Origin: an uncultured Candidatus Rokubacteria bacterium
Lineage (GTDB): Bacteria; Methylomirabilota; Methylomirabilia; Rokubacteriales; DASRDR01
Assembly: GCA_963708025.1 (NCBI GenBank)
Contig: CAVPSB010000030.1
Span: 47,455-111,454, forward strand
DNA length: 64,000 nt
Reading direction: 5' to 3'
In this document: one piece after another, positions 2,174 to 24,403 of the stretch
How positions within the stretch are numbered: the stretch's first letter is position 1
Layout: each line of letters starts with the position of its first letter
Translations under genes and position numbers: made by a program
The notes under the pieces: model-generated
Seen by the model: the letters and a program-made list of their open reading frames with translations, nothing else
What the model was told of the DNA's origin: nothing
The model's database searches: none

Positions 2174-2179
2174 CGACGC

Positions 2180-5190: not shown

Positions 5191-5229
5191 CCGACGCGTC
5201 ATCAAACCGCAACACGCCCGGTCTAAGGT
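5176..5229 (+). promoter_or_regulatory. Pho-box-like four-repeat promoter
   Basis: GTCAC-N6-GTAAC-N6-GTCAT-N6-GCAAC, 10 nt, then TAAGGT. Confidence 0.6.
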
Positions 5230-5238
5230 CGGAGCGTC

Positions 5239-5457
5239 ATGACCACGGTCGGGCAGTCGCTGCAGCAGCTCGTCCTGTTCGGGCTCTTCGTCCTCGTCTT
5301 CCTGGGCTCGACCCAGCTCTTCCTCGCCTACCGCTGGCGGCGGGCGCTCGACCGGGACGAGGCGCGGGCATACGTCCCCCACGCCGACCCGTGGCTGCCG
5401 GCCCTGCTGACCCTGATCGGGGCCGGCTGGACCCTCCTGCTGTACGTCCTCCGCTAG
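5239..5457 (+). CDS. Small two-TM membrane protein (72 aa)
   Basis: Two hydrophobic segments; GGAG before the ATG; has its own Pho-like promoter. Confidence 0.6.
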   Translation: MTTVGQSLQQLVLFGLFVLVFLGSTQLFLAYRWRRALDRDEARAYVPHADPWLPALLTLIGAGWTLLLYVLR

Positions 5458-5654
5458 ATCCTTTGGGGGGTCTCGGAAGACTCCTCCGATGTCCCCGCGT
5501 CGTGGGGGCGGCGAAGCCGCCGCCGCTCGGACGGTCGTCGTGGCCCACACGTTGCACTGCACGCGACAGGACATGCTCCGACGAGCTCCTAACTCGCGCG
5601 TCGCGACTGGCCCCGGCGGGCCGCAGTGTCGCATCGGCAGAGTCCGCCGTGACC

Positions 5655-5699
5655 GTAACAGTTTCGTAACTGGAAACCGCTCGTCCGGGCTCCTACACT
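5655..5699 (+). promoter_or_regulatory. Conserved operon promoter (GTAAC-N6-GTAAC ... TACACT)
   Basis: Related copies at 29117-29160(-) and 37857-37902(-). Confidence 0.6.
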
Positions 5700-5794
5700 G
5701 ACCGCGAGTGCCGTGCGCGACGCCGCCGGAGTCGCCGTTCGGCGGCACGCGCATCCGATCGGATCACCACATCGCATGTCGGAGGGCTTCCCAG

Positions 5795-6094
5795 ATGGGG
5801 TTTCATCCTCTGTCTTTCTTTCTCGGTCTCGGTGCGGCCGCCGCGATGCCGCTGCTGACTCGCGTGTTCCGTCCCGCCGCGGTCCAGATCGCGGTGGCCG
5901 GCATGGGCGTGTTCGACGAGGTCCGTCGGGTCCTCGCCGAGCAATTCGAGGCCATGGAAGACATCGCCGCCGAGGCACGGGCCAAGCGTGAAGAGAGCCT
6001 GGCCGAGGCCGCGATGGAACCGTCGAACGGCTCAGAGGCCGAGGCGGCGGTCGGACGCCCGAGTCGGCGGCCCCGGAGGCAGCGGACCGCATAG
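5795..6094 (+). CDS. DUF5132-like small protein with hydrophobic Gly/Ala-rich N-terminus
   Basis: FFLGLGAAAAMPLL...EAMEDIAAEARA resembles small proteins of P1B-ATPase/fez-type operons; GGAGGG RBS. Confidence 0.6.
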   Translation: MGFHPLSFFLGLGAAAAMPLLTRVFRPAAVQIAVAGMGVFDEVRRVLAEQFEAMEDIAAEARAKREESLAEAAMEPSNGSEAEAAVGRPSRRPRRQRTA

Positions 6095-6096
6095 CC

Positions 6097-6597
6097 GTGG
6101 CGACCCTCCAGGTCGCCCACGACATTCCCGGGAGACTCCGCCTCCGCCTGCGCGCGGCCGTCGAGGGGGACAGCCTGGCGGCGGCGATGCGCGAGCATCC
6201 CGGCGTGACGGACTGCGTGTGGGCGGCCCGCACCGGGAGCCTGCTCCTCCACTACCGTCCGCAGGTGACGAGCGGGACGCTCCTCCGCGACGCCGTGGCG
6301 GCCCGAACCGGTCTGTCGCCGGCCGGCCCGGACGGCGCACCGGCGACCAGCGCCCGGAACGGCGAGCCGCCCCAGCTGGCCACTGCCATCACCCAGGGCA
6401 TGACCGACCTGAACGCTCAGGTGACGCAGGTGACGGGTGGCGCGCTCGATCTCCGCACGCTCCTGCCGCTCGCGCTGGGGGCATGGGCGCTCGCCGAGAT
6501 CTTCCGGGGGCGGGCCGGACCGATGGCCTGGTCAACGGCCCTCTGGTACGCCCATGGCCTGTTCCGCGACTACAACCTGCCCGGCGGCGAGCGGTAG
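6097..6597 (+). CDS. HMA2/CoBaHMA-type domain protein with C-terminal membrane segments (FezC-like)
   Basis: VAHDIPGRLRLRL...TGSLLLHY at the N-terminus; DLRTLLPLALG...WSTALWYA at the C-terminus. Confidence 0.72.
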   Translation: MATLQVAHDIPGRLRLRLRAAVEGDSLAAAMREHPGVTDCVWAARTGSLLLHYRPQVTSGTLLRDAVAARTGLSPAGPDGAPATSARNGEPPQLATAITQGMTDLNAQVTQVTGGALDLRTLLPLALGAWALAEIFRGRAGPMAWSTALWYAHGLFRDYNLPGGER

Positions 6598-6601
6598 CGC
6601 C

Positions 6602-8735
6602 GTGACGGGCCGGGTCGCCCACTCGGTCCGGGGTCGGCTCCGGCTCCGGTATCCGCCCGATTGGCTGCGGCCGCGCCAGGCCGCGATCGAGGGCGAGCTG
6701 GCCCGCGTCCCCGGGGTGCGTGGGGTCACCGCGAGCGGCGTCACGGGCAGCGTCGTGGTCAGATACGACCCGGCCCGCACCGCCGAGCAGGTCCTGGTCA
6801 ACACGCTGTCCGCGATGCACGGGGGATCCCCCCCCGCCGCGCCGACCTCGAACGGAAGGCACACGGTCACGGCGGCCGTCGGGACTCACGCCGCCCCTGC
6901 TCCCGTTCCTGGCCGCCAGCGGCATGTTCGCGGCGACCTTCCTGCCGCTCCCTGGCCCTGTCCTGGCGGGACTCACCCTCGGCTCGGGCTGGCCACTCAT
7001 CCGGCGCGCGGGGCGAACCCTGGCGCGGGACGGTCGCCTCAACGTCGAGGTGCTCGACGCGGCGACGCTCGTCGTGCTCGCCATCCGCGGCAACTACCGC
7101 GCGGCCGCCCTGCTCGTGTGGCTCCTGTCGGCCGGCCAGTACGTCCTGGACAGCACCGTCGTCCGGATCCGCCGGTCCATCCGCGACCTCCTGGCTTCCC
7201 CGGCCGATCCGGTCTGGCGCGAAGACGGCGGAGAGCGCACGCAGGTCCCGATCGGCGCGGTCCAGGCGGGCGACACGATCGTGCTGGCCACGGGAGAGCG
7301 GGTCCCGGTGGACGGCACCGTCGTCCACGGCGAGGCGCTGATCGACCAGCAGCGGGTCACGGGGGAGGGTCTGCCGGTCGAGCGGGTGGCCGGTGACCGC
7401 GTGTACGCCTCGACGATGGTCGAGGACGGCGAGATCGCCGTCCGAGTCGAGCGGGTCGGCATGGAGACCTCCGTCGGCCGGATCATCGAGGCGGTCGAAG
7501 GGGCGGAAGGCGAGAAGCCCGAGCTCCAGCTCTTCGCCGAGGAGCTGGCCGACCGGCTGGTGCTGCAGACGGTCGGCCTGGCGGCGCTGGCATCCGCGGC
7601 GACACGGAGCCTCGATACCGGGATCGCCATCCTCGTCGCCGACTACGGAACACCCGTGCGGGTCGCGATTCCCACTGCCGCCATGGCGGCGCGGATCCGC
7701 GCCGCGCGCGCCGGCATCCTGTTGAAGGGGCCCGGCGTCCTCGAGCGGCTGGCCCGGGTCAACACGGTCGTCTTCGACAAGACGGGAACCCTCACCCTCG
7801 GCGCGCCACAGGTCACCCGCGTGGCGAGCTACGACCCCGCGCTCGATCCGGACGAGATCGTCCGCCTGGCGGCCGCCGCCGAGCGGGGATTCCGGCATCC
7901 GGTGGCCCGAGCCATCGTGCGGCTCGCCACCGAGCGGCGACTGCCCGTCCCCCGGCGGACGGAGACCGAGCTCCGGATGGGTCTCGGCGTCGGCGTCCGG
8001 GCCGACGGCCGCCACGTCCTCGTGGGCAGCCGGCGCTTCATGGAGTCGCACGGCGTCCGGCTGGACCGGGCGGCGGATGACGAGGCGGCCAGCCACCGGG
8101 ATGGCGGCGCCCCGACCTTCGTCGCGGTGGACGGCCAGCTGGCCGGGCTCCTCCGGCTGCAGGACGAGCTGCGGCCCGAGGCGCCGGACGCCGTGCTCGC
8201 GCTCCGGGCCCGCCGGATGCGGAACGTGATCATGGTCTCCGGCGACCACGCCGAGCCGACGCGGGTCATCGCCGAGTCCCTCGGCGTCCGGCACTACTAC
8301 CCGGACCTCCTCCCCGACGAGAAGGCCGAGCTCATCCGGAAGCTTCGCGCCGAGGGTCGGGTCGTCGCGATGGTGGGCGACGGCGTGAACGACGCCCTGG
8401 CCCTCCACCAGGCCGACGTCGGGATCGCCGTGCCGGGAGGCGCCGAGGTCGTGGCCGAGGCGGCCGGCGTCGTCCTCCTGGGGGGCGGCCTGGACAAGGT
8501 CGTCCAGGGTCTCGACATCGCCCGGGAGACCATGGTCGTGTTCCGGCGGGTCGTGGACGTCGCAGCCCAGGTGAATCTCGGCGTGATCGGCCTGGCGTCG
8601 GTGGGCCTGGCGGGCCCGGTCACCTCGATCCTCCTGAGCAACGGAGCGGTCGTCGGGGTGGCGCTCTACACGCTGATTGGAGCCCCGTCCGTGGGCAATG
8701 CCGGGCCGGACCGGGCCCGGGCGGGGTCACGGTGA
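6602..8735 (+). CDS. P1B-type ATPase (P1B-6/FezB-like) with N-terminal HMA2 domain; frameshift at about 6821-6835
   Basis: HSVRGRLRLRY N-terminus in one frame; TGEG, ADYGTP, DKTGT, HP and GDGVND in the next; shift at a G5/C8 homopolymer. Confidence 0.85.
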
Positions 8736-8779
8736 CGTCAACTATTCGTCATCGTCCCGTCACGCCTATCCCTTATCCT
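8726..8779 (+). promoter_or_regulatory. Pho-box-like four-repeat promoter
   Basis: GTCAC-N6-GTCAA-N6-GTCAT-N6-GTCAC, 10 nt, then TATCCT. Confidence 0.65.
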
Positions 8780-8822
8780 GTCGTGCAGGAAGGATACCCT
8801 TGGCAAAGGGGGGCCTGCCTGT

Positions 8823-8975
8823 ATGATTGCGCAGCTGCTGATGGGCTTCGTCACGGACGTGCTCTTCGGCTGGGTCTCGTCGGGCGGCCGGTCGTTCCAG
8901 GCCGAGGTCACGCAGTACATGGAGCGCCGGGGTCTCGTCAACCCGCGGGAGGTGAAGAAGAGCACCACCCGGTAG
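8823..8975 (+). CDS. Small protein of 50 aa (MIAQLLMGFVTDVLFGWVSSGGRSFQAEVTQYMERRGLVNPREVKKSTTR)
   Basis: Not in the ORF track; AAAGGGGG RBS, host-like GC3 codon usage, upstream Pho-like promoter. Confidence 0.55.
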   Translation: MIAQLLMGFVTDVLFGWVSSGGRSFQAEVTQYMERRGLVNPREVKKSTTR

Positions 8976-9041
8976 TCCTCGGCCCCGCCCCTCGCCCGCC
9001 CTCGCCGTAAGCCAGGCTGAGTCGCCTCGCCTCAGCATCGC

Positions 9042-12036
9042 ATGTCCGCCCCATCTCCTGTCCGACCCGCCGGAGGCACCGCCCCGGTGACAGCTCTCTG
9101 CGTCGCCGTCCCCGGGCGCGCCCGGCTCCGTGTCGAACGGGTTGCGAAACGGGAGTGCGGTCGCCCGGCAGCTCGAGACTCGCCTCCATGGTCATCAGGC
9201 GATTGCCGCCGTTCAGGCGAACCCGCTCACCGGCAACCTGCTCGTCCTGTTCGACCCGGCCCGGCTGACCGTGCGGGAGCTGATCGCCGAGGTCGTGCGA
9301 TCCCGGGCTCCGGCGCGTCGCCGCCGCAACGGGCGAGGCGGCCGCGTCACGGCCCCGCGGTCGGCGCCGCCCGACGGGCCGGCGTGGCATGCCCTGCCCG
9401 CCCGCGCGGTCGTCAGGGAGCTGGAGGTCGCCCCCGACACCGGCCTGTCGGGCGTCGAGGCGGAGCGGCGGCTGGCCACGGTGGGACCGAACCGCCTGCC
9501 GGCGCCCGAGCCCCGGTCGGCGCTGGCCACGCTGTGGGACCAGGTGGCCTCGCTGCCGGTCGGGCTCCTCGCCGGAGCCGCGGCGCTCTCCCTCGCCGGC
9601 GGCGCCGTGTTCGACGCCCTCGTCATCCTGGGCGTGGTCGGGATCAACGCGGCGGTCGGCTACGTCACCGAGCGCCGGGTGGATCGCATCCTCGGCGGCC
9701 TGCGGAATGCGACGGTGCCGACGGCGCTCGTCCGCCGCGATGGGAAGGAGACCTTCCTGCCGGCGGCGGCCCTCGTCCCCGGCGACGTCGTCGTCCTCCA
9801 GGCCGGCTACGACGTGCCCGCCGACGGTCGCGTGATCGCGGCCGACCGGCTCGCGCTCGACGAATCGGCGCTGACCGGTGAGAGCCTGCCGGTGCCGAAG
9901 GCGGCCGGCACGGTCTACGCCCCGGAGACACTCCTCGCCGACCGGGCGAACATGGTCTACTCGGGCACCAGTGTCGCCGAGGGCTCGGGCCTGGCTCTCG
10001 TCACCGGCACCGGCGTCGCCACCGAGATGGGACGCATCCGCCAGCTCATCGCCGCGGCGGTGGCGCCTCCGACTCCACTCGAGCGCGAGCTGGACCGGAT
10101 GGGCCGCCGGCTGGTCGGCCTCTGCCTCGGGCTTTCCAGCGTCGCGCTGGGGCTCGGGCTGCTCCGGGGTGTGGCGGCCCTCGAGATGCTGCGGACCTCG
10201 ATCTCCCTCGCGGTGGCGGCGGTGCCCGAGGGCCTGCCGGCCGTCGCGACCACCACCCTGGCGCTCGGCATGCAGCGCATGCTGCGCCGCAACGCGCTCA
10301 TCCGGCGTCTCTCCGCCGTGGAGAGCCTCGGCGCCACGACCGTCATCTGCGTCGACAAGACGGGCACGCTCACCGAGAACCGGATGAGCGTGCACGCCTG
10401 GCACCTGGGCGGGAGCGATCTCGTCGTGAACGGCCGCGCGGCCGAGCTGTCCGACCCGCGACTCCGCTGGGCGCACATGATCGGCGTGCTGTGCAACGAG
10501 GCGGACCTGACCCGGCAGCAGGGCGGAGGCTGGGAGGTGAACGGCAGCGGCACCGAGGGCGCGCTGCTGGCCGCCGCCCGGCAAGCGGGGCTCGACTACC
10601 GGCGCCTGCGGGAGGATCACCCGCTGGTGAGCCTGCGCCCTCGGCTCGCGGACGAGAACTGGATGGCGACGGTTCACGAGGCCGGGCCCGGTCGCCGGCT
10701 GATGATGGTCAAGGGGGCACCGGAGGAGGTCGTGCGGCTCTGCGCCCGACGCCTCGACGGGGCCACCGCGCCGGGCCTGGACGACGACGCCCGGCGCAGC
10801 ATCCTGGAGGCGAACGCCGCCCTGGCGAACCAGGGCATGCGCGTGCTCGGGCTCGCGTTCAAGGAGATCCCGGCCGCGGCGAGCCCGAGCTACGACGACC
10901 TCGCGTGGGTCGGGCTGGTCGGACTCCGGGATCCGATTCGCGAGGGCGTGCGCGAGGCGATCGCGGCCTGCCAGCGGGCGGGCATCCGCACCATCATGAT
11001 CACCGGCGACCAGAGCCTCACCGCCCTGGCCGTTGCCCGCGAGCTCGACCTCGTGCGCAACGGACAGATGCGGGTGGTGGAGGCCTCGCAGCTCGGCGGG
11101 GCGTCGGAGGCCGCCGTGCGGAATTTCGCGCGGGACGTGGCGGTCTTCGCCCGCGTCTCGCCGGCCCACAAGTACCAGATCGTCCGGGCGCTCCAGGCCG
11201 AGGGCGAGATCGTCGCCATGACCGGTGACGGCATCAACGACGCGCCCGCCCTGAAGGCAGCCGACATCGGGGTGGCGATGGGCGCCCGGGGGACCCAGGT
11301 CGCCCGGGACCTGGCCGACGTCGTGCTGCTCGACGACAATTTCGGCTCCATCGTCGGCGCCGTGGAGCAGGGCCGGACGATCCACGCCAACGTCGGCAAG
11401 GCGCTCCGCTTCCTCCTGGCGACCAACTTCAGCGAGATCCTGGTGACCATCGGCGCGCTGGCGCTCGGGATCGCCCGTCCGCTGACGGCCATCCAGCTCC
11501 TCTGGATCAACCTGCTCTCCGACGTGGTGCCGGCGCTGGCGCTCGCCGTGGAGCCGGCGGAGCCCGACATCATGGCGCGGCCGCCCCGGGATCCGGCGGC
11601 GCCGGTCCTGTCCGGGGATGCCCTCCTCCGGATCGCCGGCGACGGCGCGCTGCTCTCGGCCACGACGCTCGGCGCGTACGGCGCGGCACTGGCCCGCCAC
11701 GGCGCGGGCCCTCAGGCCGCCAGCGTGGCGTTCGCCACCCTGGCCTCGGGCCAGCTCCTGTACGCGCTCACCTGCCGCTCCGAGCACCGGCCCGCGGTCA
11801 CGGGCCTCCATCGGAGCCCCGCGCTGCTCGGTGCGGTGGGCGGCACCGTGGCCCTCCAGGTCGCCGCGGTCGCCGTCCCGTCGCTGCGACGTCTCTTGGG
11901 GATCGCGCCCCTCGGACCGGGTGATTGGGGCCTGGTGGCGGCCGGGGCGGCGCTTCCGCTCCTGGTGACGGAGGTAACCAAGGCGCTCCGCGCCCGGCCG
12001 GTGTTGACCGCCGAGCCGACGAGAAGGAGGCGATGA
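9042..12036 (+). CDS. PIIA (Ca2+-type) P-type ATPase with N-terminal HMA2 domain; single-base frameshift at about 9138
   Basis: AVPGRARLRV then GLRN...ANPLTGNLL; TGES, VPEGLP, DKTGT, KGAPE, GDGINDAPAL motifs; paralog of 16793-19786. Confidence 0.88.
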
Positions 12037-12642
12037 ATGGCGACCAAGCGAGAGGACCAGTCGCGGGAGACCACGCAGGACGGCGGCGCGATGCACCGCG
12101 CCATCCGCGGCACCATCACCGGCAGCGAGATCATCTCGGTGGGGGTGCTCAACCTGGTGCGGAGCACGCTCGTGACCGCGCTGTCCGGCGCCCGGGACGT
12201 CGGAAGCGAGGTGGGGATCACCGCGGTGGCGACCGTCCGCGGGACCATCAAAGCCGCCCACGAGATCGGCGGCGACCTCGGCATGGTGGCCCAGTCCGCC
12301 GCTCGCGGCGCGGTCCGGGCCGCCCAGGAGGTTGGCGGCGACGTAGCCGGCGCGGCCCGCCGGGCAGTCGAGGGCACGATCGAGGCAGCGCGCGAGATCG
12401 GCGGCGACGTGGTCGGCGCGGCCCGCAAGGCCGCCGAGGGCGCGATCGACGCCGCCGACCGGATCGGCTCGGCCACCGGCCGAGCAGTGCGACGGACGGT
12501 CGGCGTGGCGGTGCGGCAGGCCCGGGGGGTCAGGCCCGCCCGGGCGACGCGAAAGCAGGCGCTCCGCGCGCGGCCGGTGCGACTCCGCCGCCCCGGGCGC
12601 CCGCGGCCGAAGGGCGGTGGGAGGGGGGCGAGGGCAGAATAG
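12037..12642 (+). CDS. Ala/Gly-rich 22-aa-repeat hypothetical protein, copy 1
   Basis: Starts immediately after the ATPase stop; paralogs at 15170-15537(-) and 28268-28867(-). Confidence 0.75.
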   Translation: MATKREDQSRETTQDGGAMHRAIRGTITGSEIISVGVLNLVRSTLVTALSGARDVGSEVGITAVATVRGTIKAAHEIGGDLGMVAQSAARGAVRAAQEVGGDVAGAARRAVEGTIEAAREIGGDVVGAARKAAEGAIDAADRIGSATGRAVRRTVGVAVRQARGVRPARATRKQALRARPVRLRRPGRPRPKGGGRGARAE

Positions 12643-12647
12643 GGCCG

Positions 12648-12790
12648 CTAGCCGGACTCGAAGCCGTTGCGCAGAGGGGTGGACATGTCGGTCACCCCCC
12701 ACACGTTGCCATGCCGGTAGAAGGCGAGGTTCTCGACGGCGGGGAAGCCCGCCCCACCCTCCGAGCCGGCCTCGCCGCGCCCGACCGGTA
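12648..12790 (-). pseudogene. Fragment resembling PhoX (DUF839) alkaline phosphatase
   Basis: Minus strand reads GEAGSEGGAGFPAVENLAFYRHGNVWGVTDMST, similar to the PhoX GF..xDNLAFD..GNxW..TD motif. Confidence 0.55.
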
Positions 12791-12799
12791 ACCGCCTCG

Positions 12800-13105
12800 C
12801 TACCCGAGGCGGCGGGCGGCTCGTTTCAGCGCCTCGACCCGGTCCTCACGCTCCCGCGGCACGTCGAGATCGGTTGGTCCGAAAAGGCCGTAGGCCGCCA
12901 GCCGCGCGTAGAAGCTCGTCGGAGTAGCCGATGTCGCGGATGGACCCGCCGCGCCGAGGACCGCCACGACGAGCGCGCTGGCGAGGCCCGCCCCGTGCCC
13001 GCCCGGGAGAGCGTCACCCGCGGCATCGCCGCCGGATCCGACCGGGCCGACGATCCGCCTGCCGCCGGGCAACGTCCACTCCGGGACCGTCATCCGGTTC
13101 TCGCC
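12800..13105 (-). pseudogene. Collapsed remnant of a duplicated ATPase-metK operon
   Basis: 12801-12916 matches 15574-15689; 12914-12955 matches about 16550-16590; 12956-13103 matches 18329-18476. Confidence 0.8.
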
Positions 13106-13283
13106 CGCCGTTGGCCACTCGCTCGAGGATACCCGCGAATGGTCGGGCAGGCGCTCGACCGCGAAGCGGAGCGGGCATGGCCGCGCAATAGAAGCGGCCG
13201 TTCGGCACGTGACTCCCTCTCGAGCGCGACAGGGGCAGTCCGGCGACAAGGGGCGACCGCTGGCGCGTCCGCGCAGTCGAGAT

Positions 13284-13326
13284 GTCGTGTCAACGTCATC
13301 AACCCGTGACGTCCCCCGCGTAGGGT
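13284..13326 (+). promoter_or_regulatory. Pho-box-like promoter
   Basis: GTCGT-N6-GTCAT-N6-GTGAC, 10 nt, then TAGGGT; upstream of the alkaline-phosphatase-family gene. Confidence 0.6.
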
Positions 13327-13422
13327 TCCCTCCGGTGCTGTGCGGACCGGTCCGCGCGGGCCGTCCACCCACAAGTCCGAGCCGCCGCCGTCCGGTGCGG
13401 CGCGAAGCCGGAGGTTCACGCC

Positions 13423-15175
13423 ATGGCGTCCACCGTCCGCCCACTGCTCCACGCCCTCCTCGCTGCTGTTGTACCCCGGCGGCTCTGCGCGGTCTTGCTG
13501 GTCCTGGCCGGCGTAGTGCTCGCCGGGGTGGCCCCGGCAGCCCCGCGGGTCATCGTCATCTCGCTCGACGGCGCCACCCCGCGCTTCGTGGACGACTACC
13601 TGGCCCGGGGGGTGCTCGAGCGGGACAGGGGACTCGGCCTCCTCAGGCGGCACGGCATCACCGCGCGGCAGAACGTGACGATCAACCCCTCGCTGACCGC
13701 GCCCGGCCACATCGCCATCGCCACCGGCTCCATCGCCGCTCACAACGATATCGCCGCCAATACCTTCCACCTGCAGGCCAGCCCGTTCACGGCGACCATC
13801 AGCGGGTTCTCGGCTCCGATCGGCGGCTACGACATTCACGGGCCAGCGGAGGCGGCCGAGATCACGGCGGAGCCCTTGTGGCTGCCGCTGCGGGCGGCCG
13901 GCAAGGTGGTGGCGACCGCCACCTTCCCCGGCGGCGATGGCCTCGACATCCGTGTGCCCGGACGCTCACCGAGCCCGATCGTCCAGCCGGCCGCCGAGCG
14001 CACCGTGGACTACACGGTTCCCTTCGGTGCGTTCGCCGGCGTCGGAGCCCAGGGCTTCAGTCTGACCGCGGCCGACTTCTCGGTCGCTCCCAGTTCGACC
14101 ACCGGCCAGCTCGCCGCCGCCGGTCGGACGTCCTTCAGCCCGACACTCCAGAAGGTGACCCCCCTCGAGACATTCACGGTGGGCGGCGTGAGCTACCAGA
14201 TCCAGGTGGCGGCACTCGACACGACGAATGACGGCCTGGTCAACTATGACATGCTGGTGTTCTTCGATACGGCTCACGGGATCCCGCCCGGCCCCTTCAA
14301 CCCTCCGTCCACCGGACCGGCCTACGTCCGCCCGGCGGACAAGCGCTCGGGCCCCTTCTACCTGGAGGGCAGCAGCACCAGAGCGGGCACGGGCTTCTAC
14401 GTGAGCCGGCTCGAGCCCGACCTTTCCAGCGTGCGGATCGCCCGGTACTCTGCCAACGCCATCCCCCGCAACGCCGCCGTCCTCGGCGACGTGGACGACG
14501 TCAACAACCACGCCGGATTCTGGGCGCCCCAGCCCGACTTCCGGATCCCCGAGCGACTGAGCCCGGGTTTCGATCCCTTTCCCGACCTCGAGTTGGAAGC
14601 GATCTACCAGGATCTCGTGCGACTGTTCGTGGACTACCAGACCCGGGTGGGGCTTCGGGCCATCGAACGCTTTCCCGACGCCGACCTGATCATGATCTAC
14701 ATCGAGCAGCCGGACGGATCGGGCCACCAGTTCCTGCTGACCGATCCCCGCCAGCCCACCGACCCCCGCAACCCGGACTCGATCGGCGGCGGGCAGGACC
14801 CGGACAAGGTGGCTCGCTACGCCCGCTACCACGAGGCCGCCTACCGGGCGGCCAGCACCGCCGTGCAGCGGATCATCGAGGCGGTCGGCACCGATCGCCA
14901 CGGCATGCCGAGGAGCAACATCATCGTCGTCTCCGACCACGGCTTCGAGATCTTTCACACTGCGGTCAGCATGATGAACCTGCTCGTCAGCCGCGGCTTC
15001 GACCCGACCAAAGTCCGGGCGGTGACATCGGGTCCGGCTGTCAACGTCTACGTCAACCTGATCGGACGCGGCCCGAGCGGTACCGTGACCCCAGCCGAAT
15101 ACCTGGTCCTCCAGGGCCAGATCGCCGACGCGCTGGCGGAGCTCGTGGACACCAACCCGAATTACACCAACGGCC
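13423..15175 (+). pseudogene. Secreted alkaline phosphatase superfamily (NPP/phosphodiesterase) protein, 3'-truncated
   Basis: Signal peptide; ISLDG, PSLTAPGH, QPDGSGHQ and VSDHG motifs; beyond about 15175 the ORF is just the antisense of another gene. Confidence 0.75.
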
Positions 15176-15537
15176 TCGACCGCCGTCGCCACCGCGGCCT
15201 TGCTCGCCGTCCGGGCAACCTCCGCGAGGTCGCCGCCCACCTCCTGGGCTGCCTGGATGGTGCCTTGCACGGCATGCTTCGCGGCGAGTCCGACGTCACC
15301 TCCGATCTCGGACGTCGCCCGGATGATGCCGCGCACCGCCGTGATCCCGACCGTCGCCACGAGGCCTCCCAGTTCGGCCACGCCCGACAGGCTCGTGAGC
15401 AGGCTGTTCCGGGCCAGGTGGATCACACCGGCGGCGACGATCTCCGCGCCGCTGATCGATCGTTGGAGGGCCGAGGATCCGTTGTCGGCTTCGCTCGATG
15501 GTCGGGGTCGCGTTCCGGTCCTCCGCTTCGTGGTCAT
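15170..15537 (-). pseudogene. 22-aa-repeat protein, copy 2, 3'-truncated
   Basis: EIVAAGVIHLARNSLLTSLSG...AAQEVGGDL is homologous to 12037-12642; runs into the antisense of the phosphatase gene. Confidence 0.7.
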
Positions 15538-15572
15538 GATGCGTCCCCTGTCTCGGATCCTTCCGCCCAAGG

Positions 15573-16796
15573 TTACCCGAGGCGGCGGGCGGCTCGTTTC
15601 AGCGCCTCGACCCGGTCCTCACGCTCCCACGGCACGTCGAGATCGGTTCGTCCGAAGTGGCCGTAGGCTGCCAGCCGCGCGTAGAAGCTGCCTTCGTGCC
15701 GGATGGGCAGCTGGCGCAGGCCGAGGTGGTGGACCACCGCCGCCGGCCGCAGGTCGATGGTCTCCTGCAGGACGCGCGCGAGGTCGGTGTCGGACGCCAC
15801 GCCGGACCCGTACGTCTCGACCGACACGGCGAGCGGCCGGGCCTGGCCGATCGCGTAGGCCAGGTGCACCTCGCACTCCCGGGCCAGCTCGGCGGCGACG
15901 AGGGTCCGGGCCGCGTAGCGGGCGACGTACGCCCCGAGGCGATCGATGTGATCCGGGTTCTTCCCGGACAGCGCGCCGCCGCCGTGTCGCGTGTATCCCC
16001 CGTAGGTGTCCACCATGTTCTTCCGGCCGGTGAGCCCCGCATCCCGACGGGGGCCTCCGACGAGAAAGGCGCCGCCGGGGTTGACGAAGAGCCGGGCCTC
16101 GGCGTCGAAGCTCAGCTCGGTGCGATCCAGGGCCGGACGCAGGACCGCGTCCCGGATGTCGCCCTCGAGCCGGCGCCGGGTGGCGGTGGACGTGCCCGGC
16201 GCGCCGACCGCGGTCGTGTGCTGGACATTGATCACGACCGTGTGAATCCGCACGGGACGCCGATCCTCGAACTGCACGGCCACCTGGACCTTGCCGTCCG
16301 GCCCCAGGTACGGCACGGCCTTCTCGCGCCGCGCCTGATCGAGCCGCCGGGCCAGCCGATGGGCCAGGGCGATGGGCGCCGGCATCCGCTCGGGTGTGTG
16401 CGTGCACGCATACCCGAAGACGGACGCCTGGTCCGAGGCCACGCCGGCGTCGAGCTCCTCCTCCGTCGACTCGACGTCGGGAGCCGGATCGCGGCCGGGA
16501 CGGTGGGCGAAGTTGGTGATGACGCTCGCGTTCTCGGGGTCGAAGCCCTGCTCGTCGGAGTAACCGATGTCGCGGATGACCTGCCGCGCCACGCCGGCCG
16601 GGTCCACGCTCACCGCCGAGGCCGCCGTGACCGCCAGGAACACGAGCCCCGTGGCCACGGCACATTCGGCGGAGACCCGGGCTTCCGGGTCGAGATAGAG
16701 GAACGCGTCGATCACGGCGTCGGAGATCTGGTCGCACATCTTGTCGGGGTGCCCCTGGGTGACCGACTCCGAGGTGAAGACGCTCGTCTTGCTCAC
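15573..16796 (-). CDS. metK: S-adenosylmethionine synthetase, divergent paralog
   Basis: FTSESVTQGHPDK, PDGKVQV, DAGLTGRK, GGGALSGK and YGHFGR motifs; GTGA overlap with the ATPase stop. Confidence 0.9.
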   Translation of the reverse strand: MSKTSVFTSESVTQGHPDKMCDQISDAVIDAFLYLDPEARVSAECAVATGLVFLAVTAASAVSVDPAGVARQVIRDIGYSDEQGFDPENASVITNFAHRPGRDPAPDVESTEEELDAGVASDQASVFGYACTHTPERMPAPIALAHRLARRLDQARREKAVPYLGPDGKVQVAVQFEDRRPVRIHTVVINVQHTTAVGAPGTSTATRRRLEGDIRDAVLRPALDRTELSFDAEARLFVNPGGAFLVGGPRRDAGLTGRKNMVDTYGGYTRHGGGALSGKNPDHIDRLGAYVARYAARTLVAAELARECEVHLAYAIGQARPLAVSVETYGSGVASDTDLARVLQETIDLRPAAVVHHLGLRQLPIRHEGSFYARLAAYGHFGRTDLDVPWEREDRVEALKRAARRLG

Positions 16797-19786
16797 GGGC
16801 CTGGCCTCCTTCCGGCGTCGCCCGGCGCGGGCCGGGACTTGAGCATCTCTCGCGCGAGCAGCGGGGCCACCGCGCCCGCCGCGACGACCCCCCAGGCGCC
16901 GGCGCCGAGGGGGGACGTGCCGAGTAGCCGGCGGAGCGCCGGCACCGTGACGGCCCCGACCTGAAGCGCCAGCGTCCCCGCAAGCGCCCCGATCAGGGGC
17001 GGGTTCTGCGAAAGGCCGCTCAGCGCCGGGCGCGTCTCGGACCGACACGCCAGCGCGTACAGGAGCTGGGCGGTGGTCAGGGTGACGAACGGCACGGTGG
17101 AGCCGGCCGCGCCCGGCCGGCCACCGGCGATCGCGTGCGCTCCGAGGGCCGAGGCGGTCATCACGGCCGCGTCCACGGCGATCCGCCGCATGTCCGCGGT
17201 CGAGAGAAGCGGCTCGTCGCGTGGCCCGGGGGCTCGCCGCATCACGTCCGGCTCGGCCGGCTCCATCGCGAGCGCGAGAGCCGGGAACACGTCGGACAGG
17301 AGGTTCATCCACAGCAGCTGCACCGCGGTCAAGGGTCGGGCGATGCCCAGGGCCATGCCGACGACCGTGAGTAGCACCTCGCCGAGGTTGGTGGCGAGCA
17401 GGAAGCGCACGGCCTTCCGGACGTTGGCGCGGATCGTGCGGCCCTGCTCCACCGCGCCCACGATCGAGCCGATGTTGTCGTCCAGCAGGACGACGTCGGC
17501 CAGGTCCCGGGCCAGTTCCGTCCCGCCCACCCCGATGGCGACGCCGACGTCCGCCGCGCGGAGGGCGGGTCCATCGTTGATCCCGTCACCGGTCATCGCC
17601 ACCACCTCGTCGTCCGCCTGCAGGGTCTGGACGATGCGGTACTTGTCGGCGGGCGACACCCGGGCGAAGATGTCCACCTCCCGCGCCAGCCCCCGGAGGG
17701 CTTCCGGCGGGAGCTGGGCGATCTGCGCCGCCTCGGCCACCCGCAGCTCCCCGTTCCGGTCGAGGCCGAGCGCCCGCCCGACGGCGATCGCGGTGGGGCT
17801 CTGGTCGCCGGTCAGCATGACGACCCGGATGCCGGCCGCCCGGCAGGCGTTCAGGGCCTCCCGCACGCCGGGTCGGATCGGGTCCACCATCCCGACCAGA
17901 CCCGCCCAGACGAGCTGGTCGATCGCGGGCGGCTCGGCTGCCATCCCGTCGTCGTCGCGATAGGCCAGGCCGAGGACCCGGAGGGCGTCGCTGGCCATGC
18001 GGGCATTGGTGCCGAGGATCGCCCGGCGGTCGCTCGCGGTCAGCACCCGCGAGTCGCCGTTCCGGCCAGCAACGTGGCTGGCGAGTCGCAGGACCTCCTC
18101 CGGCGCCCCCTTGACCGCGATAAGCCGATGGCCGTTATCGGTCGAGTGCACCGTCGCCATCCAGTTCTGGCCGACGGCCCTGGGCCGGACCCCGATCCGC
18201 GGGTGGCGGGCTCGCAGCGCCCGGCCATCCACGCCGAGGGCGCGGGCGGACTCCAGGAGGGCGACCTCGGTCCCGCTGCCCAGGATCGTGCCGCCCTCGG
18301 CCTCCGCGACGAGCTCGGCCTCGTTGCAGAGGACCGCCACGACGAGCGCGCTGGCGAGGCCCGCCCGGTGCCCGCCCGGGAGAGGGTCACCCGCGGCATT
18401 GCCGCCGGATACGACCGGGCCCACGATCCGCGTGCCGCCGGGCAGCCTCCACTCCTGGACCGTCATCCGGTTCTCGGTGATCGTGCCCGTCTTGTCGACG
18501 CAGATGACCGTCGTCGCTCCGAGGCTCTCGACGACCTCGAGCCGCCGGACGAGCACGTTCCGCCTGAGCATCCGCTGCATCCCGAGGGCGAAGGTCGTCG
18601 TCGCGACGGCGGGCAGACCTTCCGGCACGGCGGCGACGCCGAGGGCGATGGCCGTTCTCACCATCTCCAGCGCGGAGATGCCGCGCAGCAGGCCAAGCCC
18701 GAGGACGGCGGCGCAGAGCGAGACCGTGATCCCGACGAGGGTCCGGCCCATCCGGTCGAGCTGCCGCTCGATCGGCGCCGGTGGTGGCTCGACCCCGGCG
18801 ACCAGGGCGCGCACCCGGCCGAATTCCGTGCGACTCCCGGTCCCGGTCACGACCGCGAGGCCAGCGCCCTCGCTGACCACGGTTCCGGCGTAGACCATGT
18901 TGGCCCGGTCGGCGAGCGGGGTGCCTTCGGCGTGGACGTGGTCAGCCCGCTTGGCCACCGGCAGGCCTTCCCCGGTCAGAGCGGACTCGTTGACGCTCAG
19001 CCCGCCCGTCACATCCACCAGGCGGCCGTCGGCGCCGACGTCGTGTCCCGCCCTGAGGATCAGGACGTCCCCAGGCACCAGCGAGGCCGTGGAGACGGTG
19101 CGCTCGCGACCATCACGCCGAACCAGCGCCACCGGGTGCGTCAGGCGCTGCAGGGAGCTGAGGATGCCCTCGACGCGGCTCTCGGTCGCGTATCCGACCA
19201 GCGCGTTGGCGGCGACGACACCGAGAATCACGATCGCCTCGAAGGGGGCTCCGCTCACCAGGGACAGGCCGGCGGCGCCGGCCAGGAGCGCCACCGGCAG
19301 GGAGGTGACCTGTCCGGCCAGGATCGCAAGGCCCGAGCGAGGAGTCGGGGCGGGGACACGATTCGAACCGAACCGCGCGAGCCGGGCCTCGGCCTCCTCG
19401 CCGGTCAGGCCGACGGACGGCAGCGTGGCCAGGCGCGCCACGACGTCGGCGGCCGTCGTGGCATGCCAGCGGTCGCCGTCGCGCTCGAGTATCTCGTGAT
19501 CTCCCCCGCGGGTCGGCGGTCGCGACCGCCGCCGCGGCGGCCCCCCGTCGCGATAGCGACGCAGCTCGGCCGCGACCTGGCGGGGGCTGAGGGCCTCGGC
19601 GTCGAAGAGCACGAGGACGCTGCCGGTCAGCGGGTTGGCGTGAACTTCGCGGATGCCGACCCGGATCGCCAGCCGGTCAACGATGCGCCGCGCGACGTCG
19701 GGACGGTGGCGCAGACCCTCGACCCGGGCGCGGATTCGTCCACGCACGGCGACCGAGAGGAAGATCACAGATGGCTGGGCCGTCAT
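16793..19786 (-). CDS. PIIA (Ca2+-type) P-type ATPase with N-terminal HMA2 domain
   Basis: AVRGRIRARV...ANPLTGSVL; VPEGLP, DKTGT, KGAPE and GDGIND motifs. Confidence 0.92.
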   Translation of the reverse strand: MTAQPSVIFLSVAVRGRIRARVEGLRHRPDVARRIVDRLAIRVGIREVHANPLTGSVLVLFDAEALSPRQVAAELRRYRDGGPPRRRSRPPTRGGDHEILERDGDRWHATTAADVVARLATLPSVGLTGEEAEARLARFGSNRVPAPTPRSGLAILAGQVTSLPVALLAGAAGLSLVSGAPFEAIVILGVVAANALVGYATESRVEGILSSLQRLTHPVALVRRDGRERTVSTASLVPGDVLILRAGHDVGADGRLVDVTGGLSVNESALTGEGLPVAKRADHVHAEGTPLADRANMVYAGTVVSEGAGLAVVTGTGSRTEFGRVRALVAGVEPPPAPIERQLDRMGRTLVGITVSLCAAVLGLGLLRGISALEMVRTAIALGVAAVPEGLPAVATTTFALGMQRMLRRNVLVRRLEVVESLGATTVICVDKTGTITENRMTVQEWRLPGGTRIVGPVVSGGNAAGDPLPGGHRAGLASALVVAVLCNEAELVAEAEGGTILGSGTEVALLESARALGVDGRALRARHPRIGVRPRAVGQNWMATVHSTDNGHRLIAVKGAPEEVLRLASHVAGRNGDSRVLTASDRRAILGTNARMASDALRVLGLAYRDDDGMAAEPPAIDQLVWAGLVGMVDPIRPGVREALNACRAAGIRVVMLTGDQSPTAIAVGRALGLDRNGELRVAEAAQIAQLPPEALRGLAREVDIFARVSPADKYRIVQTLQADDEVVAMTGDGINDGPALRAADVGVAIGVGGTELARDLADVVLLDDNIGSIVGAVEQGRTIRANVRKAVRFLLATNLGEVLLTVVGMALGIARPLTAVQLLWMNLLSDVFPALALAMEPAEPDVMRRAPGPRDEPLLSTADMRRIAVDAAVMTASALGAHAIAGGRPGAAGSTVPFVTLTTAQLLYALACRSETRPALSGLSQNPPLIGALAGTLALQVGAVTVPALRRLLGTSPLGAGAWGVVAAGAVAPLLAREMLKSRPAPGDAGRRPGP

Positions 19787-19817
19787 CGCTACGGGCGGCT
19801 CTGGCTCCGTCCACGAC

Positions 19818-19860
19818 ACCCTACCAGTGGTTCGTTACCATGACGCTACGACAACGTTAC
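19818..19860 (-). promoter_or_regulatory. Pho-box-like promoter of the ATPase-metK operon
   Basis: Minus strand: GTAAC-N6-GTAGC-N6-GTAAC, 10 nt, then TAGGGT. Confidence 0.6.
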
Positions 19861-19953
19861 GAAACCTCGAGTCCGGAGGAAGGACCAGCTTGACCTATCA
19901 TGGGCCCTGGGGTGGTGCCCAGCGAGTCCTCGGTGCAGGCTCGGGAAGGATGC

Positions 19954-21363
19954 ATGAAGCGCCTGTTCGTCATCGGGCTCGGGCTCGTGGCCGTGTTGCT
20001 GGTGGCGGCGCTGGCGGCGGCGCTTGCCATCGGGCTGCCACGCAACGCGGCCGGCATGGCCGCCCGCAGCGTGTGCTCGGGAGCCTTCGTCGCCGAACGG
20101 CCGTGGCAGAAGGTGCTGACCGAGGACGTGCTGCCGGCCAGCGGCGTGCTGCAGTTGGTCAACGTGACCGTCAACGTCGCAGCACGCACGGTGAGCGCAC
20201 GCTTTGCCGGCGGCTTCGAGCGCCGCGCGTCGCATCTGGGGCGGCGCGGCTGCGTGCTCGACGCCGAGCCCGACCGCGCCGCCGCGCCGCCGACCCCGCT
20301 CGTCGCTCGCGGCGCGCCCTGGCCCCAGGGTGATTCGCCGCTGCCCCCGGCGCAATGGGGGGACGGGGTCGCCGCCGCTCGGCTGCAGGCCCTGGTGGAC
20401 GAGGCCTTCGTCGGCGCCGGCGATCCCGCCGCGGCGAACGCACGCGGCCTTGCCGTCGTGCACCGCGGCCGGCTGCTCCTGTTGCGCCATGGCCACGGGT
20501 TCGACGCCACGACGCCGTTGCACGGCTGGTCGATGACCAAGACCGTGCTGGGCATGCTCACCCACAAGATCGCTGCCGAGCGGAGGCTCGCGCTCGGCCG
20601 CCCGGTGGTCGAGGCGTTCGGCCCCGGCCGCGAACCGGCCTGGGTCGCCCTCTGGCGCGCCGATGCGCGCAAGGGCATCACCGTGCAAGACCTGCTGTGG
20701 ATGCGCGACGGCCTGGCCAACGTCGAGGACTACGCGCCCTGGGGCGCGGTGCCACGCCTGCTGTGGGGCGGCAAGGACGTTGCCGCCCATGCCGCGGGTG
20801 CCGAGGCCGAGGTGCCGCCGGCCACGCGCTGGCGGTATTCGAGCGCCACCTCGAACCTGCTCGCGCGAGTGCTGCGCGGCAGCTTTGCGACCGATGCCGA
20901 ATACTGGGCCTATGCGAAGCAAGCCCTCTTCGACCCGATCGGCGCCGGCACCGCGGTGCTCGAGACCGACGCCGACGGCACCTGGATCGCGTCGTCATAC
21001 CTGTGGGCGAGCACCGGCGACTGGGCCCGCCTGGGCCTGTTGATGCTGCAAGACGGCCGCTGGGGCGAGCGCCAGGTGCTGCCGCCCGGTTGGCTGGCGC
21101 GTGCGGCGACGCCCTCGCTCGGGAAGGGGGATGGACTTGGCTACGGCGCGCAGACCTGGCTCATCGGCCACCCGAGCGAACGCATGTGCCGTGGCCGCGG
21201 CCTGCCGCCGGATACGATGGCGATGATGGGCCACTGGGGTCAGATCGTCGCCATCGTGCCGTCCCGCCAGGTGGTGACGGTGCGCCTGGGCTGGACCCTC
21301 GACCCCGACGCGTTCCGGCCCTGCGAGTTCGTGGCCGAGGTGCTGAAGGCCGTGAAGGACTAG
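19954..21363 (+). CDS. Serine hydrolase of the beta-lactamase family with N-terminal anchor
   Basis: WSMTK (SxxK), RYSS and GHWGQ motifs. Confidence 0.85.
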   Translation: MKRLFVIGLGLVAVLLVAALAAALAIGLPRNAAGMAARSVCSGAFVAERPWQKVLTEDVLPASGVLQLVNVTVNVAARTVSARFAGGFERRASHLGRRGCVLDAEPDRAAAPPTPLVARGAPWPQGDSPLPPAQWGDGVAAARLQALVDEAFVGAGDPAAANARGLAVVHRGRLLLLRHGHGFDATTPLHGWSMTKTVLGMLTHKIAAERRLALGRPVVEAFGPGREPAWVALWRADARKGITVQDLLWMRDGLANVEDYAPWGAVPRLLWGGKDVAAHAAGAEAEVPPATRWRYSSATSNLLARVLRGSFATDAEYWAYAKQALFDPIGAGTAVLETDADGTWIASSYLWASTGDWARLGLLMLQDGRWGERQVLPPGWLARAATPSLGKGDGLGYGAQTWLIGHPSERMCRGRGLPPDTMAMMGHWGQIVAIVPSRQVVTVRLGWTLDPDAFRPCEFVAEVLKAVKD

Positions 21364-21502: not shown

Positions 21503-22018
21503 GGAGGCCTCGGTCTCAAGGGCGAATACGTCCAGCAGATGGACGAGCGGAAGAACCTGGGCCCGGGTGGGAGCAATCTCGACGACGTCACGTCGAAAGG
21601 CTACTACGTGACGGCGACGTTCCTCCTGACCGGTGAGGACTCCGTGCTGAACGGGCCGGTGGTGCCGCGACGGCCGTTCTCCCCGTTCGCCGGGGCGCTG
21701 GGGCCGGGAGCGTGGGAGATCGCCCTCCGCTTCTCGCAGATCGAGTTCGATTCGGACGACCCTCTCGACTTCTTCGACGGGAACCTGGCCAACGGGGTCA
21801 CGGCGGGCAACGGGACGAACCGGGCTCAGGCGCTGACGGCTGGGGTCAACTGGTACCTGAACTCGCGGGTCCGGCTGATGGCCAACTACACCCACTACTG
21901 GTACGACAACGACTTCGCCACCCCGACGAGCTGTCGCCGGAACACCTGCGCCGCCGGGGACCTGCGGCGGGGCGACGACGCCTGGGAGTTCCTCACCCGC
22001 CTCCAGTTCTGGTTCTGA
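21503..22018 (+). pseudogene. Phosphate-selective porin OprO/OprP, C-terminal half only
   Basis: KGEY, GYYVTATFLLTGE, GAWEIALRFS, GVNWYLN motifs and C-terminal RLQFWF; no signal peptide or N-terminal half. Confidence 0.7.
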
Positions 22019-24387: not shown

Positions 24388-24403
24388 GGGCGGAAGGGCC
24401 GCG

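Follow-up and report, generated by a model that had tools for sequence, protein, structure and literature searches.

A conserved operon of two HMA_2-tagged P-type ATPases and small membrane proteins, with a candidate operator, beside ppx-ppk1 in an uncultured Rokubacteria genome

The fez gene clusters, which store iron phosphate in ferrosomes, encode a P1B-6 ATPase, FezB, that carries the signatures D[YF]SCA and HNxxT in the accessible part of their description (Grant et al., bioRxiv 10.1101/2020.01.10.902569). A second system is built on PacL proteins, which, according to the available portion of one report, cluster the pumps CtpC, CtpG and CtpV by means of a transmembrane (TM) Gly motif and E/A repeats that bind the N-terminal domains of the pumps; the same portion places the PacL family, DUF1490, in Actinobacteria only (PMC13043812). 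DUF1490/PacL is described as related to DUF6110, DUF6110 proteins as encoded with P1B6 pumps, and CtpC as ‘P1B6-like’ in the accessible text of Boudehen 2022 (PMC9374683), a text that contains no mention of DUF5132. DUF5132 proteins are found in a Microcystis preprint, in which they and a CoBaHMA hairpin protein are neighbors of ccyA and of a Ca/H exchanger, with which they are co-expressed. Here we analyze an operon of two HMA_2-tagged P-type ATPases and several small proteins in a stretch of 64,000 nucleotides from an uncultured Candidatus Rokubacteria bacterium (assembly GCA_963708025.1, contig CAVPSB010000030.1, positions 47,455 to 111,454; the window). We consider it probable that this cluster is a phosphate-starvation-linked platform of two pumps, of the PacL/Fez type.

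Genes in the window, which has a G+C content of 70-75%, were called from frames of third-position GC (GC3), from translations and from Pfam and NCBIfam profile matches. The operon lies on the plus strand and begins with C (5792-6094), a small membrane protein, DUF5132-like and PacL/FezA-like, with a Gly/Ala-rich TM segment, followed by D (6097-6597), a CoBaHMA/HMA_2 domain that continues into an amphipathic helix and, at the C-terminus, a membrane hairpin of two helices. E (6602-8735) is an HMA_2-P1B ATPase in which ADYGTP replaces CPC, and G (9042-12036) is an HMA_2-P2A ATPase of the Ca type; each of the two lies in two frames in the assembly, and a 50-amino-acid peptide, F (8823-8975), assigned by its GC3 frame, is encoded between them. 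The last gene, H (12037-12642), encodes a helical-repeat protein with 22-amino-acid repeats, an EIGGD motif and a disordered Arg-rich tail. The window in fact carries both variants of the operon, the C-H variant without metK and, on the minus strand, an inverted second copy of the back half, which consists of L (16793-19819), an intact HMA_2-P2A ATPase of the Ca type, metK (15573-16790), and H2 (15151-15537), a paralog of H with a truncated C-terminus. Directly upstream of the cluster, on the plus strand, lie ppx (2135-3109, polyphosphatase family) and ppk1 (3043-5190, polyphosphate kinase), both identified by Pfam.

A sequence-only reading of this DNA had listed these genes and had pointed to four related R-rich motifs; the genes do exist at or near the positions it gave, as judged from GC3 frames, translations and Pfam and NCBIfam matches, but the list overlooked the frameshifts in E and G, the truncation of H2, remnants of duplicated genes and a plus-strand phosphodiesterase gene between the two operons. 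All four motifs were recovered: D has HDIPGRLRLR, E has HSVRGRLRLR, G has AVPGRARLR and L has AVRGRIRAR. They form the first strands of HMA_2 (PF19991) domains. There are three PF19991 matches in the entire 8.17-Mb genome, all inside the cluster locus.

The gene set is conserved elsewhere. We compared 21 orthologous loci, 20 of them fetched from genomes of the same phylum that have an ortholog of E, together with locus L011, and the same order, C-D-E-F-P2A-(metK)-H, is constant among them; because this order recurs in related genomes, the cluster is not a chance grouping. D is present in all 21 loci, C in 20 (in the remaining one the contig ends), F in 18 by phmmer, and an H-type gene in 19, often twice. 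A P2A pump gene is found in 19 of the 20 loci with downstream DNA and is missing in L101, and metK occupies its position in 3 of 21. The adjacency to ppx-ppk1, a second element of that reading, holds in the window; among the 21 loci of the relatives, one full and one partial ppk-like match were found upstream. The cluster is accessory and patchy: an E ortholog (E ≤1e-120) occurs, always as a single copy, in 22 of 251 genomes and 11 of 68 genera of the phylum, and in 9 of its 104 high-quality genomes.

Parts of the set are also encountered outside this phylum. The trio of a DUF5132 protein, an HMA_2 hairpin protein and a DYG-type pump occurs in a Rhodospirillales metagenome-assembled genome (L019) and in a metagenome contig (L154), and D and the pump occur as a pair in Paraburkholderia acidipaludis (L018). 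A contig of Calothrix sp. HK-06 (L017) carries three HMA_2-P1B ATPases at 859-20585, with TM4 read as DFSHN and DFGTG for two of them, in the neighborhood of a beta-carbonic anhydrase, two Na_Ca_ex exchangers, an MntP-like protein, two DUF1345 proteins and a Usp protein; this region resembles the Ca-carbonate-related region described for Fischerella.

The catalytic motifs DKTGT, TGE and GDGxND are kept in E, G and L, and E passes the general P1B model TIGR01525 (446.1 bits; cut-off 346.25). Together with automatic names such as ‘Cu2+-exporting ATPase’, this family match would be consistent with an ordinary heavy-metal (Cu/Zn/Cd) resistance island, a possibility that we regard as very improbable on several grounds. 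TM4 of E reads ILVADYGTP, and its 21 orthologs have [AS]DYG[TLMAQ][AT] at this place; TM6 reads LLSNGAVV, with S/T-(H/N/Q/R)-G in the orthologs. TM4-6 of all 21 orthologs lack CPC, SPC and any other Cys/His/Met ligand motif, CxxC is absent from the N-terminal domain, the partner pump is of the Ca type, and there is no metal-sensor regulator nearby in the annotation of the window. Finally, E stands apart from CopA-like pumps in both of the trees described below.

The trees were built from a sample of the best 150 representatives of 50% clusters nearest to E, a sample that is hence biased towards E relatives. The TM4 and TM6 motifs in this sample fall into an ADYG class (the E family), a large D[YF]GTG class, an NAD[YF]GTG class with degenerate forms, a D[YF]SCA + HN class, which corresponds to the published definition of FezB, and a CtpC-like CPC + HN class. 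In the FastTree phylogeny of 152 rows, for which four CopA-like pumps served as the root, support for the E clade is 100. A Cys-less clade of 98 rows (support 93) encloses it; this Cys-less clade joins the 30 FezB-type rows at 98, and the CPC + HN pumps join next at 100. Similarly, a quick IQ-TREE analysis of 56 rows unites the DYG and DYSCA pumps at 99-100, although the monophyly of the DYG pumps has there a Shimodaira-Hasegawa-like approximate likelihood ratio (SH-aLRT) value of 1. Grouping with ordinary Zn, Cd or Cu exporters was thus not seen; E groups with FezB-type pumps.

Kinship with FezB does not make E a FezB. The D[YF]SCA signature is absent from the metal-binding TM helix of E, both in the window and in the 21 orthologs, and the HNxxT signature is likewise absent from TM6 of E and its orthologs. 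The R-rich motif at the N-terminus, HSVRGRLRLR in E and AHSVRGRLRVRYP as the family consensus, is found in other related P1B pumps and is not specific for FezB. The N-terminus of E scores 25.8 bits against PF19991, below the cut-off of 30, and its orthologs carry precomputed PF19991 assignments. Judged from these residues, E is neither an ordinary Cu/Zn pump nor FezB. Thus, of the ferrosome link that had been proposed for this locus, the pump kinship (98-100), the R-rich HMA_2 N-terminus and the absence of CPC stand, but a strict fez cluster with FezB signatures does not.

The comparison with fez can be extended to the entire operon, within what the accessible part of the fez description covers. 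In both systems the pump has an N-terminal R-rich motif, which here forms strands b0-b1 of HMA_2, a small GxxxG/A-type membrane protein is encoded just upstream of the pump along with an R-rich HMA-like membrane protein, and there is a link to phosphate chemistry. The two differ in TM4, ADYG(T/L/M)A here compared to D[YF]SCA in fez, and in TM6, S(H/N/Q)G compared to HNxxT. Furthermore, the partner protein here is DUF5132-like, whereas that of fez is a DUF6110 protein, and the operon adds a P2A pump, the 50-amino-acid peptide, helical-repeat proteins and sometimes metK, but contains no FeoA, DUF4405 or ferritin-like genes.

Over its full length, the P2A pump G can be aligned with LMCA1, the Ca-ATPase of Listeria (PDB 6zhf), at an E value of 1e-149. 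At the Ca site, G has VPEGLP, with the M4 Glu, and INLLSDVVP, with the M6 Asn/Asp, where LMCA1 has IPEAL and INLVNDSLP; G also has Glu in M5 and Gln in M8, where LMCA1 has Ala and Arg. Thus, G resembles the LMCA1-type P2A pumps in its full-length similarity and in the acidic and amide residues of M4 and M6, but differs from them in an additional N-terminal HMA_2 domain of about 85-115 amino acids. This domain reaches 30.8 bits against PF19991 in L (cut-off 30) and 20.3, below the cut-off, at the N-terminus of G; orthologs of L carry precomputed PF19991 assignments, and HMA_2-P2A fusions of this family are common among metagenome proteins.

In an alignment of C with its orthologs, a TM segment that contains GLGAA is followed by a helix rich in E and A, an acidic linker and a tail of the form RRR..RRR. 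C itself scores 19.4 bits against DUF5132 (PF17195; cut-off 25), and 18 of its 20 orthologs match this family at E ≤0.01, with a best value of 4.5e-6; neither C nor any ortholog is matched by the DUF1490 profile. When a profile of C was applied to a metagenome scan of 77 loci, which contain 33 open reading frames (ORFs) with both D[YF]SCA and DKTGT, it picked 12 ORFs, 11 of which lie directly upstream of a FezB-type pump and one of which is the DUF5132 protein in L154. Ten of these 12 match DUF6110 at E ≤0.01, nine of them above the 26-bit cut-off, and there was one weak match to DUF1490; an upstream ORF found with the C profile is present in 10 of 29 FezB-type loci. These matches suggest a set of partner pairs, in which DUF5132 proteins would go with DYG pumps, DUF6110 proteins with FezB, and DUF1490 (PacL) with CtpC.

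As far as the available portions of the M. tuberculosis reports describe them, PacL/Ctp effluxosomes, plasma-membrane platforms that are as close an experimental model as ferrosomes, are similar to this operon in that a P-ATPase shares its operon with a small single-TM protein, which, like C, has a Gly motif in the TM segment and a cytoplasmic helix rich in E and A, and in that several pumps share one type of N-terminal domain; CtpC-like pumps are, moreover, the next outgroup in our trees. The systems differ in that C resembles DUF5132 and not DUF1490 and ends in an Arg-rich tail in place of a His-rich metal-binding motif, and in that the pumps here have no CPC, one of them being of the P2A Ca type.

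D matches PF19991 with 49 bits (cut-off 30; E 8e-13) across profile positions 7-151 of 154. In an AlphaFold2 model of D (predicted local distance difference test, pLDDT, 82.5), strands 3-10 and 13-18 precede helix 1, so that the HMA fold gains one strand at its N-terminus; an amphipathic helix follows, and after it a hairpin of two helices whose end is the invariant ALWYAHGLFRDY. H8, R13, R15 and R17 are conserved residues. Foldseek matches of the model are to HMA domains, KipI (2kwa) and the YAM domain (4q2m), the same structures with which CoBaHMA was defined. The domain has no CxxC. A complex prediction for D with C scored 0.14 against a mark of 0.32 and has no bearing either way.

In the model of D, the CoBaHMA fold with an extra b0 strand and basic residues, known from calcyanin loci, appears to be reproduced. 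Indeed, a link between this cluster and CoBaHMA proteins of calcyanin loci had been suggested from the sequence, and it is borne out by the ccyA neighborhood of Microcystis, which holds a DUF5132 and CoBaHMA hairpin pair. Like our operon with the DUF5132-like C and with D, the Microcystis locus combines a DUF5132 protein with a CoBaHMA protein that ends in a helical hairpin (PF19991), beside genes of Ca transport. However, our operon has no calcyanin/GlyZip gene and no cax, it encodes ATPases instead of an exchanger, and it belongs to a different phylum; carbonate inclusions are unsupported here from the genes.

Two further proteins of the operon match no Pfam or NCBIfam family. The F peptide is hydrophobic in its N-terminal half and is kept between the two pump genes in 18 of 21 loci; it may perhaps act as a micropeptide that regulates a pump. 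H is predicted (pLDDT 67) to form a long helix and five 19-residue helices with GGD turns, followed by the disordered Arg-rich tail; Foldseek returned only designed helical repeats (E ≥0.014), and the Atlas only unnamed clusters. Assignment of H to the phasins (PF09361) was rejected, as 3 of 21 members match with a best E value of 0.0057, and so was a synuclein or apolipoprotein-like identity, for which the Pfam matches are weak and rare. H has two further paralogs, one of which, H3, lies in the window (28268-28870), is 69% identical to H and is encoded in an operon with myo-inositol-1-phosphate synthase (27192-29160, minus strand).

The operons are preceded by a direct repeat. In a search for GTAAC-N6-GTAAC, an 11-bp phase, with up to one mismatch, we found 7 sites in the window, compared to 0.08 expected; both ends of the region that the sequence-only reading had singled out, 5655 and 19860, fall on such sites. 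An exact match, GTAACAGTTTCGTAAC, lies at 5655-5670 on the plus strand, upstream of the C-H operon; three phased GTAAC-like half-sites, which form two overlapping matches, lie upstream of L (19834-19860, minus strand); and a further exact site (29145-29160) precedes the H3 operon. Operator-like sites are also found at the start of ppx (2128-2143), after ppk1 (5176-5191) and at 37887. The second of these is located before an ORF of 72 amino acids (5239-5457, plus strand), 47 nucleotides upstream of it; this ORF has two hydrophobic TM segments and a GC3 of 0.97 but no match to a Pfam or NCBIfam family, and L110, the one other locus with ppk upstream, has no space for a counterpart. A scan for sigma-70 promoters and terminators yielded nothing above chance.

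The repeat recurs at the corresponding place in other genomes. The 21 orthologous loci contain 30 sites in 367 kb, and for 10 of the 20 copies of C there is a site 52-78 nucleotides upstream, in the orientation of the operon. One further locus has such a site at 138 nucleotides, and in three loci in which an H gene precedes C the site is upstream of that H. This distribution amounts to a phylogenetic footprint. We propose with high confidence that GTAAC-N6-GTAAC is a candidate operator shared by the operons and ppx.

Repeats with an 11-bp phase are typical of OmpR/PhoB-type regulators. The whole genome contains 28 sites, 5 of them exact, and one lies 64 nucleotides upstream of a gene for PhoX with a Tat signal (585 bits), while another precedes an arsR gene that is followed by a PstS-like gene; the other four of five PstS-like genes have no site nearby. 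Sites near ABM, groES, P460 and SBF genes were rejected as members of a regulon, being intragenic or next to unrelated neighbors. One identical 16-mer, GTAACACGTGGGTAAC, occurs at two unrelated places of the genome (C16:366553-366568 and C32:228398-228413), and this pair may belong to a repeated element and not be an operator. On this pattern of sites, we lean slightly to the view that the candidate operator is a Pho box.

We can now describe how the cluster might work. The platform would consist of two pumps with complete catalytic motifs, each predicted to carry an N-terminal CoBaHMA (HMA_2) domain. By analogy to PacL with CtpC, CtpG and CtpV, the small proteins would gather both pumps in one membrane domain through their common N-terminal domain. 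The P2A pump would move Ca2+ out of the cytosol, and the P1B pump would move a second divalent cation of hard or borderline character (Fe2+, Mn2+ or Mg2+-like) in the same direction. The unit would be induced by a PhoB-type regulator during phosphate scarcity and polyphosphate turnover, and it might serve to remove polyphosphate's counter-cations or move them elsewhere, or else to supply metals to secreted phosphatases.

Several observations weigh against this proposal. The ions assigned to the two pumps follow from homology and from what conserved residues would bind by their chemistry, and the scores of G (582.7 bits) and L (548.7 bits) against TIGR01522 are below the equivalog cut-off of 798.3; because both fall below NCBIfam equivalog cut-offs, we treat their Ca-type assignment as a well-founded inference and not as a demonstration. 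C falls short of the DUF5132 cut-off, has no DUF1490 match, and its tail is rich in Arg, unlike that of PacL1 with its metal-binding motif. Given the frameshifts in E and G, the truncation of H2 and the remnants, the local copy may be partly dead. With respect to regulation, the genome has five PstS-like genes, none of which has a site (up to one mismatch) within 200 nucleotides of its Pfam match, and of the 21 sites elsewhere in the genome the majority fall within genes or beside unrelated ones. Since the other PstS-like genes are without sites and most of the outside sites look like chance occurrences, the operator may serve a local regulator and not PhoB. The Pho-like control that had been suggested for the locus thus gains from a candidate operator common to ppx and phoX, but loses from the lack of a site at most PstS-like genes.

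P-type pumps move ions from the cytosol, and therefore the same parts fit a platform in the envelope or an internal vesicle. In the latter case, which the sequence-only reading had in view, the cluster would build and load an internal store of Ca/metal-(poly)phosphate, bounded by a membrane and similar to a ferrosome or an acidocalcisome, in which the pumps fill the lumen, C and D shape or mark the membrane, and the H proteins coat the store or bind polyphosphate with their Arg-rich tails. The position of E in a clade with FezB-type pumps is consistent with such a store, as is the composition of fez clusters, which, in the accessible part of their description, pair an R-rich pump with R-rich HMA-like and small GxxxG proteins. 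The pair of DUF5132 and CoBaHMA-hairpin proteins also flanks ccyA, a marker of intracellular Ca-carbonate, beside a Ca/H exchanger, and the distant DFGTG-type relatives in Calothrix lie beside carbonic anhydrase and two Na_Ca_ex genes. In addition, ppx-ppk1 is adjacent with an operator in common, the basic patches and tails of the proteins suit an anionic partner, and an H+-pyrophosphatase (H+-PPase) is encoded in the genome, on another contig. However, the FezB signatures are absent, the locus has no calcyanin/GlyZip protein, ppx-ppk1 is adjacent in one full and one partial case among 21 other loci, and the parts list suits a plasma-membrane platform equally well; moreover, inclusions have not been reported in any member of this group of uncultured bacteria. 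We rank the platform above a compartment because it claims less, and we think an internal store unlikely.

Acidocalcisomes and polyphosphate granules, within the parts of the literature accessible for them, share with this locus a Ca pump, polyphosphate enzymes and cation handling, and the genome does encode an H+-PPase. The differences are that the H+-PPase gene is unlinked and that, in those same parts, no tie leads from proteins of this cluster to polyphosphate granules. The broadest form of the compartment idea would treat the operon as an organelle kit, for a bacterial organelle not seen before, in which DUF5132 and CoBaHMA proteins mark a membrane, a Ca pump and a FezB-related pump load Ca2+ and a second metal onto (poly)phosphate in a store induced by phosphate starvation, and Arg-tailed helical-repeat proteins coat it; ferrosomes, effluxosomes and Ca-carbonate inclusions would then share one ancestral module of a small TM protein and a CoBaHMA-tagged pump. 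We consider this version, too, to be doubtful.

The pumps might also serve to metallate secreted enzymes, exporting Ca2+ and Fe or Mn under phosphate starvation to load PhoX and J, the phosphodiesterase of the NPP type that is encoded between the operons, in analogy to pumps of the CtpC type, which metallate proteins that are secreted. PhoX uses a Ca/Fe cofactor, phoX has the operator in common with the cluster, and the gene for a secreted phosphodiesterase is inserted in the locus. PhoX, however, carries a Tat signal, and proteins exported by Tat usually fold and take up their cofactors beforehand; J, confined to this strain, is missing from all 21 orthologous loci; and no role would be left for the H proteins. 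Metallation thus seems to us rather improbable, less so than a resistance island but more so than a store.

The region between the two operons differs from that of the relatives. J (13423 to ~15180, plus strand) is a type I phosphodiesterase/NPP (PF01663, E 5.7e-24) with an N-terminal signal or anchor. It has no homolog at E ≤1e-30 in 20 relatives and is absent from all 21 orthologous loci, and we have therefore rejected it as a member of the system. H2 is without the conserved ‘AADRIG...’ segment and the Arg-rich tail and runs antisense into the 3' end of J, such that J and H2 converge, each without its own 3' end, at about 15150-15180; their meeting point looks like a rearrangement junction. 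Between H and J, on the minus strand, lie two remnants that are direct repeats, one of the metK 3' end (12801-12916, 96% identical) and one of 151 nucleotides of an L-type ATPase (12953-13103, 93% identical to part of L). From the remnants of a metK 3' end and of L, it follows that a further L-metK copy has been lost. These remnants, at 12801-13103, could confuse assembly.

Both pump genes of the first operon are in two frames. The HMA_2 part of E starts from the GTG at 6602 and its pump body shares the frame of the 6720-8735 ORF, the change of frame falling at about 6800-6886; an intact 723-amino-acid ortholog aligns through it, the orthologs in general being unbroken with open frames of 665-984 amino acids. 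In G, the frame of the ATG at 9042 runs to ‘...AVPGRARLRVE’ and then shifts near 9136. Contigs from run X3, which stem from a related strain about 93-95% alike, have 7 nucleotides fewer at 6875-6886 and 1 nucleotide fewer at 9136, which result in single frames for E and for G, respectively. A 403-nucleotide contig from run X1 is near-identical to the window, with 1 substitution, and has one indel within 6716-7119. Short contigs of run X7, possibly RNA but perhaps DNA, also fall on parts of the locus and were left out of account. Other genes of the window are in pieces as well: a porin O/P fragment, the N- and C-terminal parts of the glucose-6-phosphate dehydrogenase gene (zwf), fused into an OpcA ORF, and a C-terminal glpK fragment lie at 21539-25513 and 56035-56589. 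This fragmentation at 21539-25513 and 56035-56589 suggests either many indels in the contig or gene decay.

If the shifts are real, the locus in this genome would be a decaying relic, inactive here after duplication, inversion and insertion. Such decay would account for the frameshifts in E and G, for the truncation of H2 and J at a common junction and for the two duplicate remnants between the operons, and run X1 has a depth of 19 at 9136 without a contig that carries the 1-nucleotide difference of X3. However, GC3 is at least 0.9 on either side of each shift, L, metK, C, D, F and H are intact, and the 403-nucleotide X1 contig has its indel in the interval that holds the shift of E. In addition, the zwf, porin and glpK genes, also in pieces, point to an error-prone assembly, and the genome bin (8.17 Mb in 49 contigs, 99.67% complete) has a contamination of 8.18%. 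Because of the indels in the X3 and X1 contigs and the other broken genes of the window, we lean towards assembly error over real decay as the source of the frameshifts, and a dead locus appears to us unlikely.

Phosphate-related genes are numerous in the window: ppx, ppk1, the phosphodiesterase gene, the porin O/P fragment and a gene for a phosphonate-binding protein. The metK of the cluster encodes a second, divergent S-adenosylmethionine (SAM) synthetase (TIGR01034, 393.5 bits; cut-off 309.4), and the housekeeping metK, 47% identical, is elsewhere in the genome on another contig. As regards a role in supplying SAM for betaine-lipid synthesis, BtaA (PF11899) was unmatched, as was the control, such that this search is uninformative. 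About 25 kb from the extra metK, at 40793-46171, are genes for a SAM-dependent methyltransferase, a GH3-family protein, a PHP-domain protein and a phospholipid methyltransferase (PEMT).

The component families of this operon and the link between PacL, DUF6110 and P1B6 pumps are already in print. Our literature search found no paper that describes the operon itself, and it found DUF5132 together with PF19991 only in the Microcystis preprint; the pairing of DUF5132 with DYG pumps, a CoBaHMA-tagged Ca-type pump in an operon, the H and F families and the operator were not found in that search.

The operon combines features of three separate lines of work, those on ferrosomes, on effluxosomes and on the CoBaHMA and DUF5132 proteins beside calcyanin. 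It adds to the published pairings of DUF6110 with P1B6 pumps and DUF1490 with CtpC a third, of DUF5132 with Cys-less DYG-type pumps, and it presents a CoBaHMA domain fused to a putative Ca-type P2A pump within a conserved operon, with a candidate operator common to ppx and phoX. We propose that CoBaHMA domains may be address tags that gather different pumps in one membrane domain, and that hard cations may be the substrates of an entire clade of ‘heavy-metal’ ATPases that lack soft-metal ligands. Cation pumping may be coupled to the economy of phosphate and polyphosphate in abundant uncultured soil bacteria.

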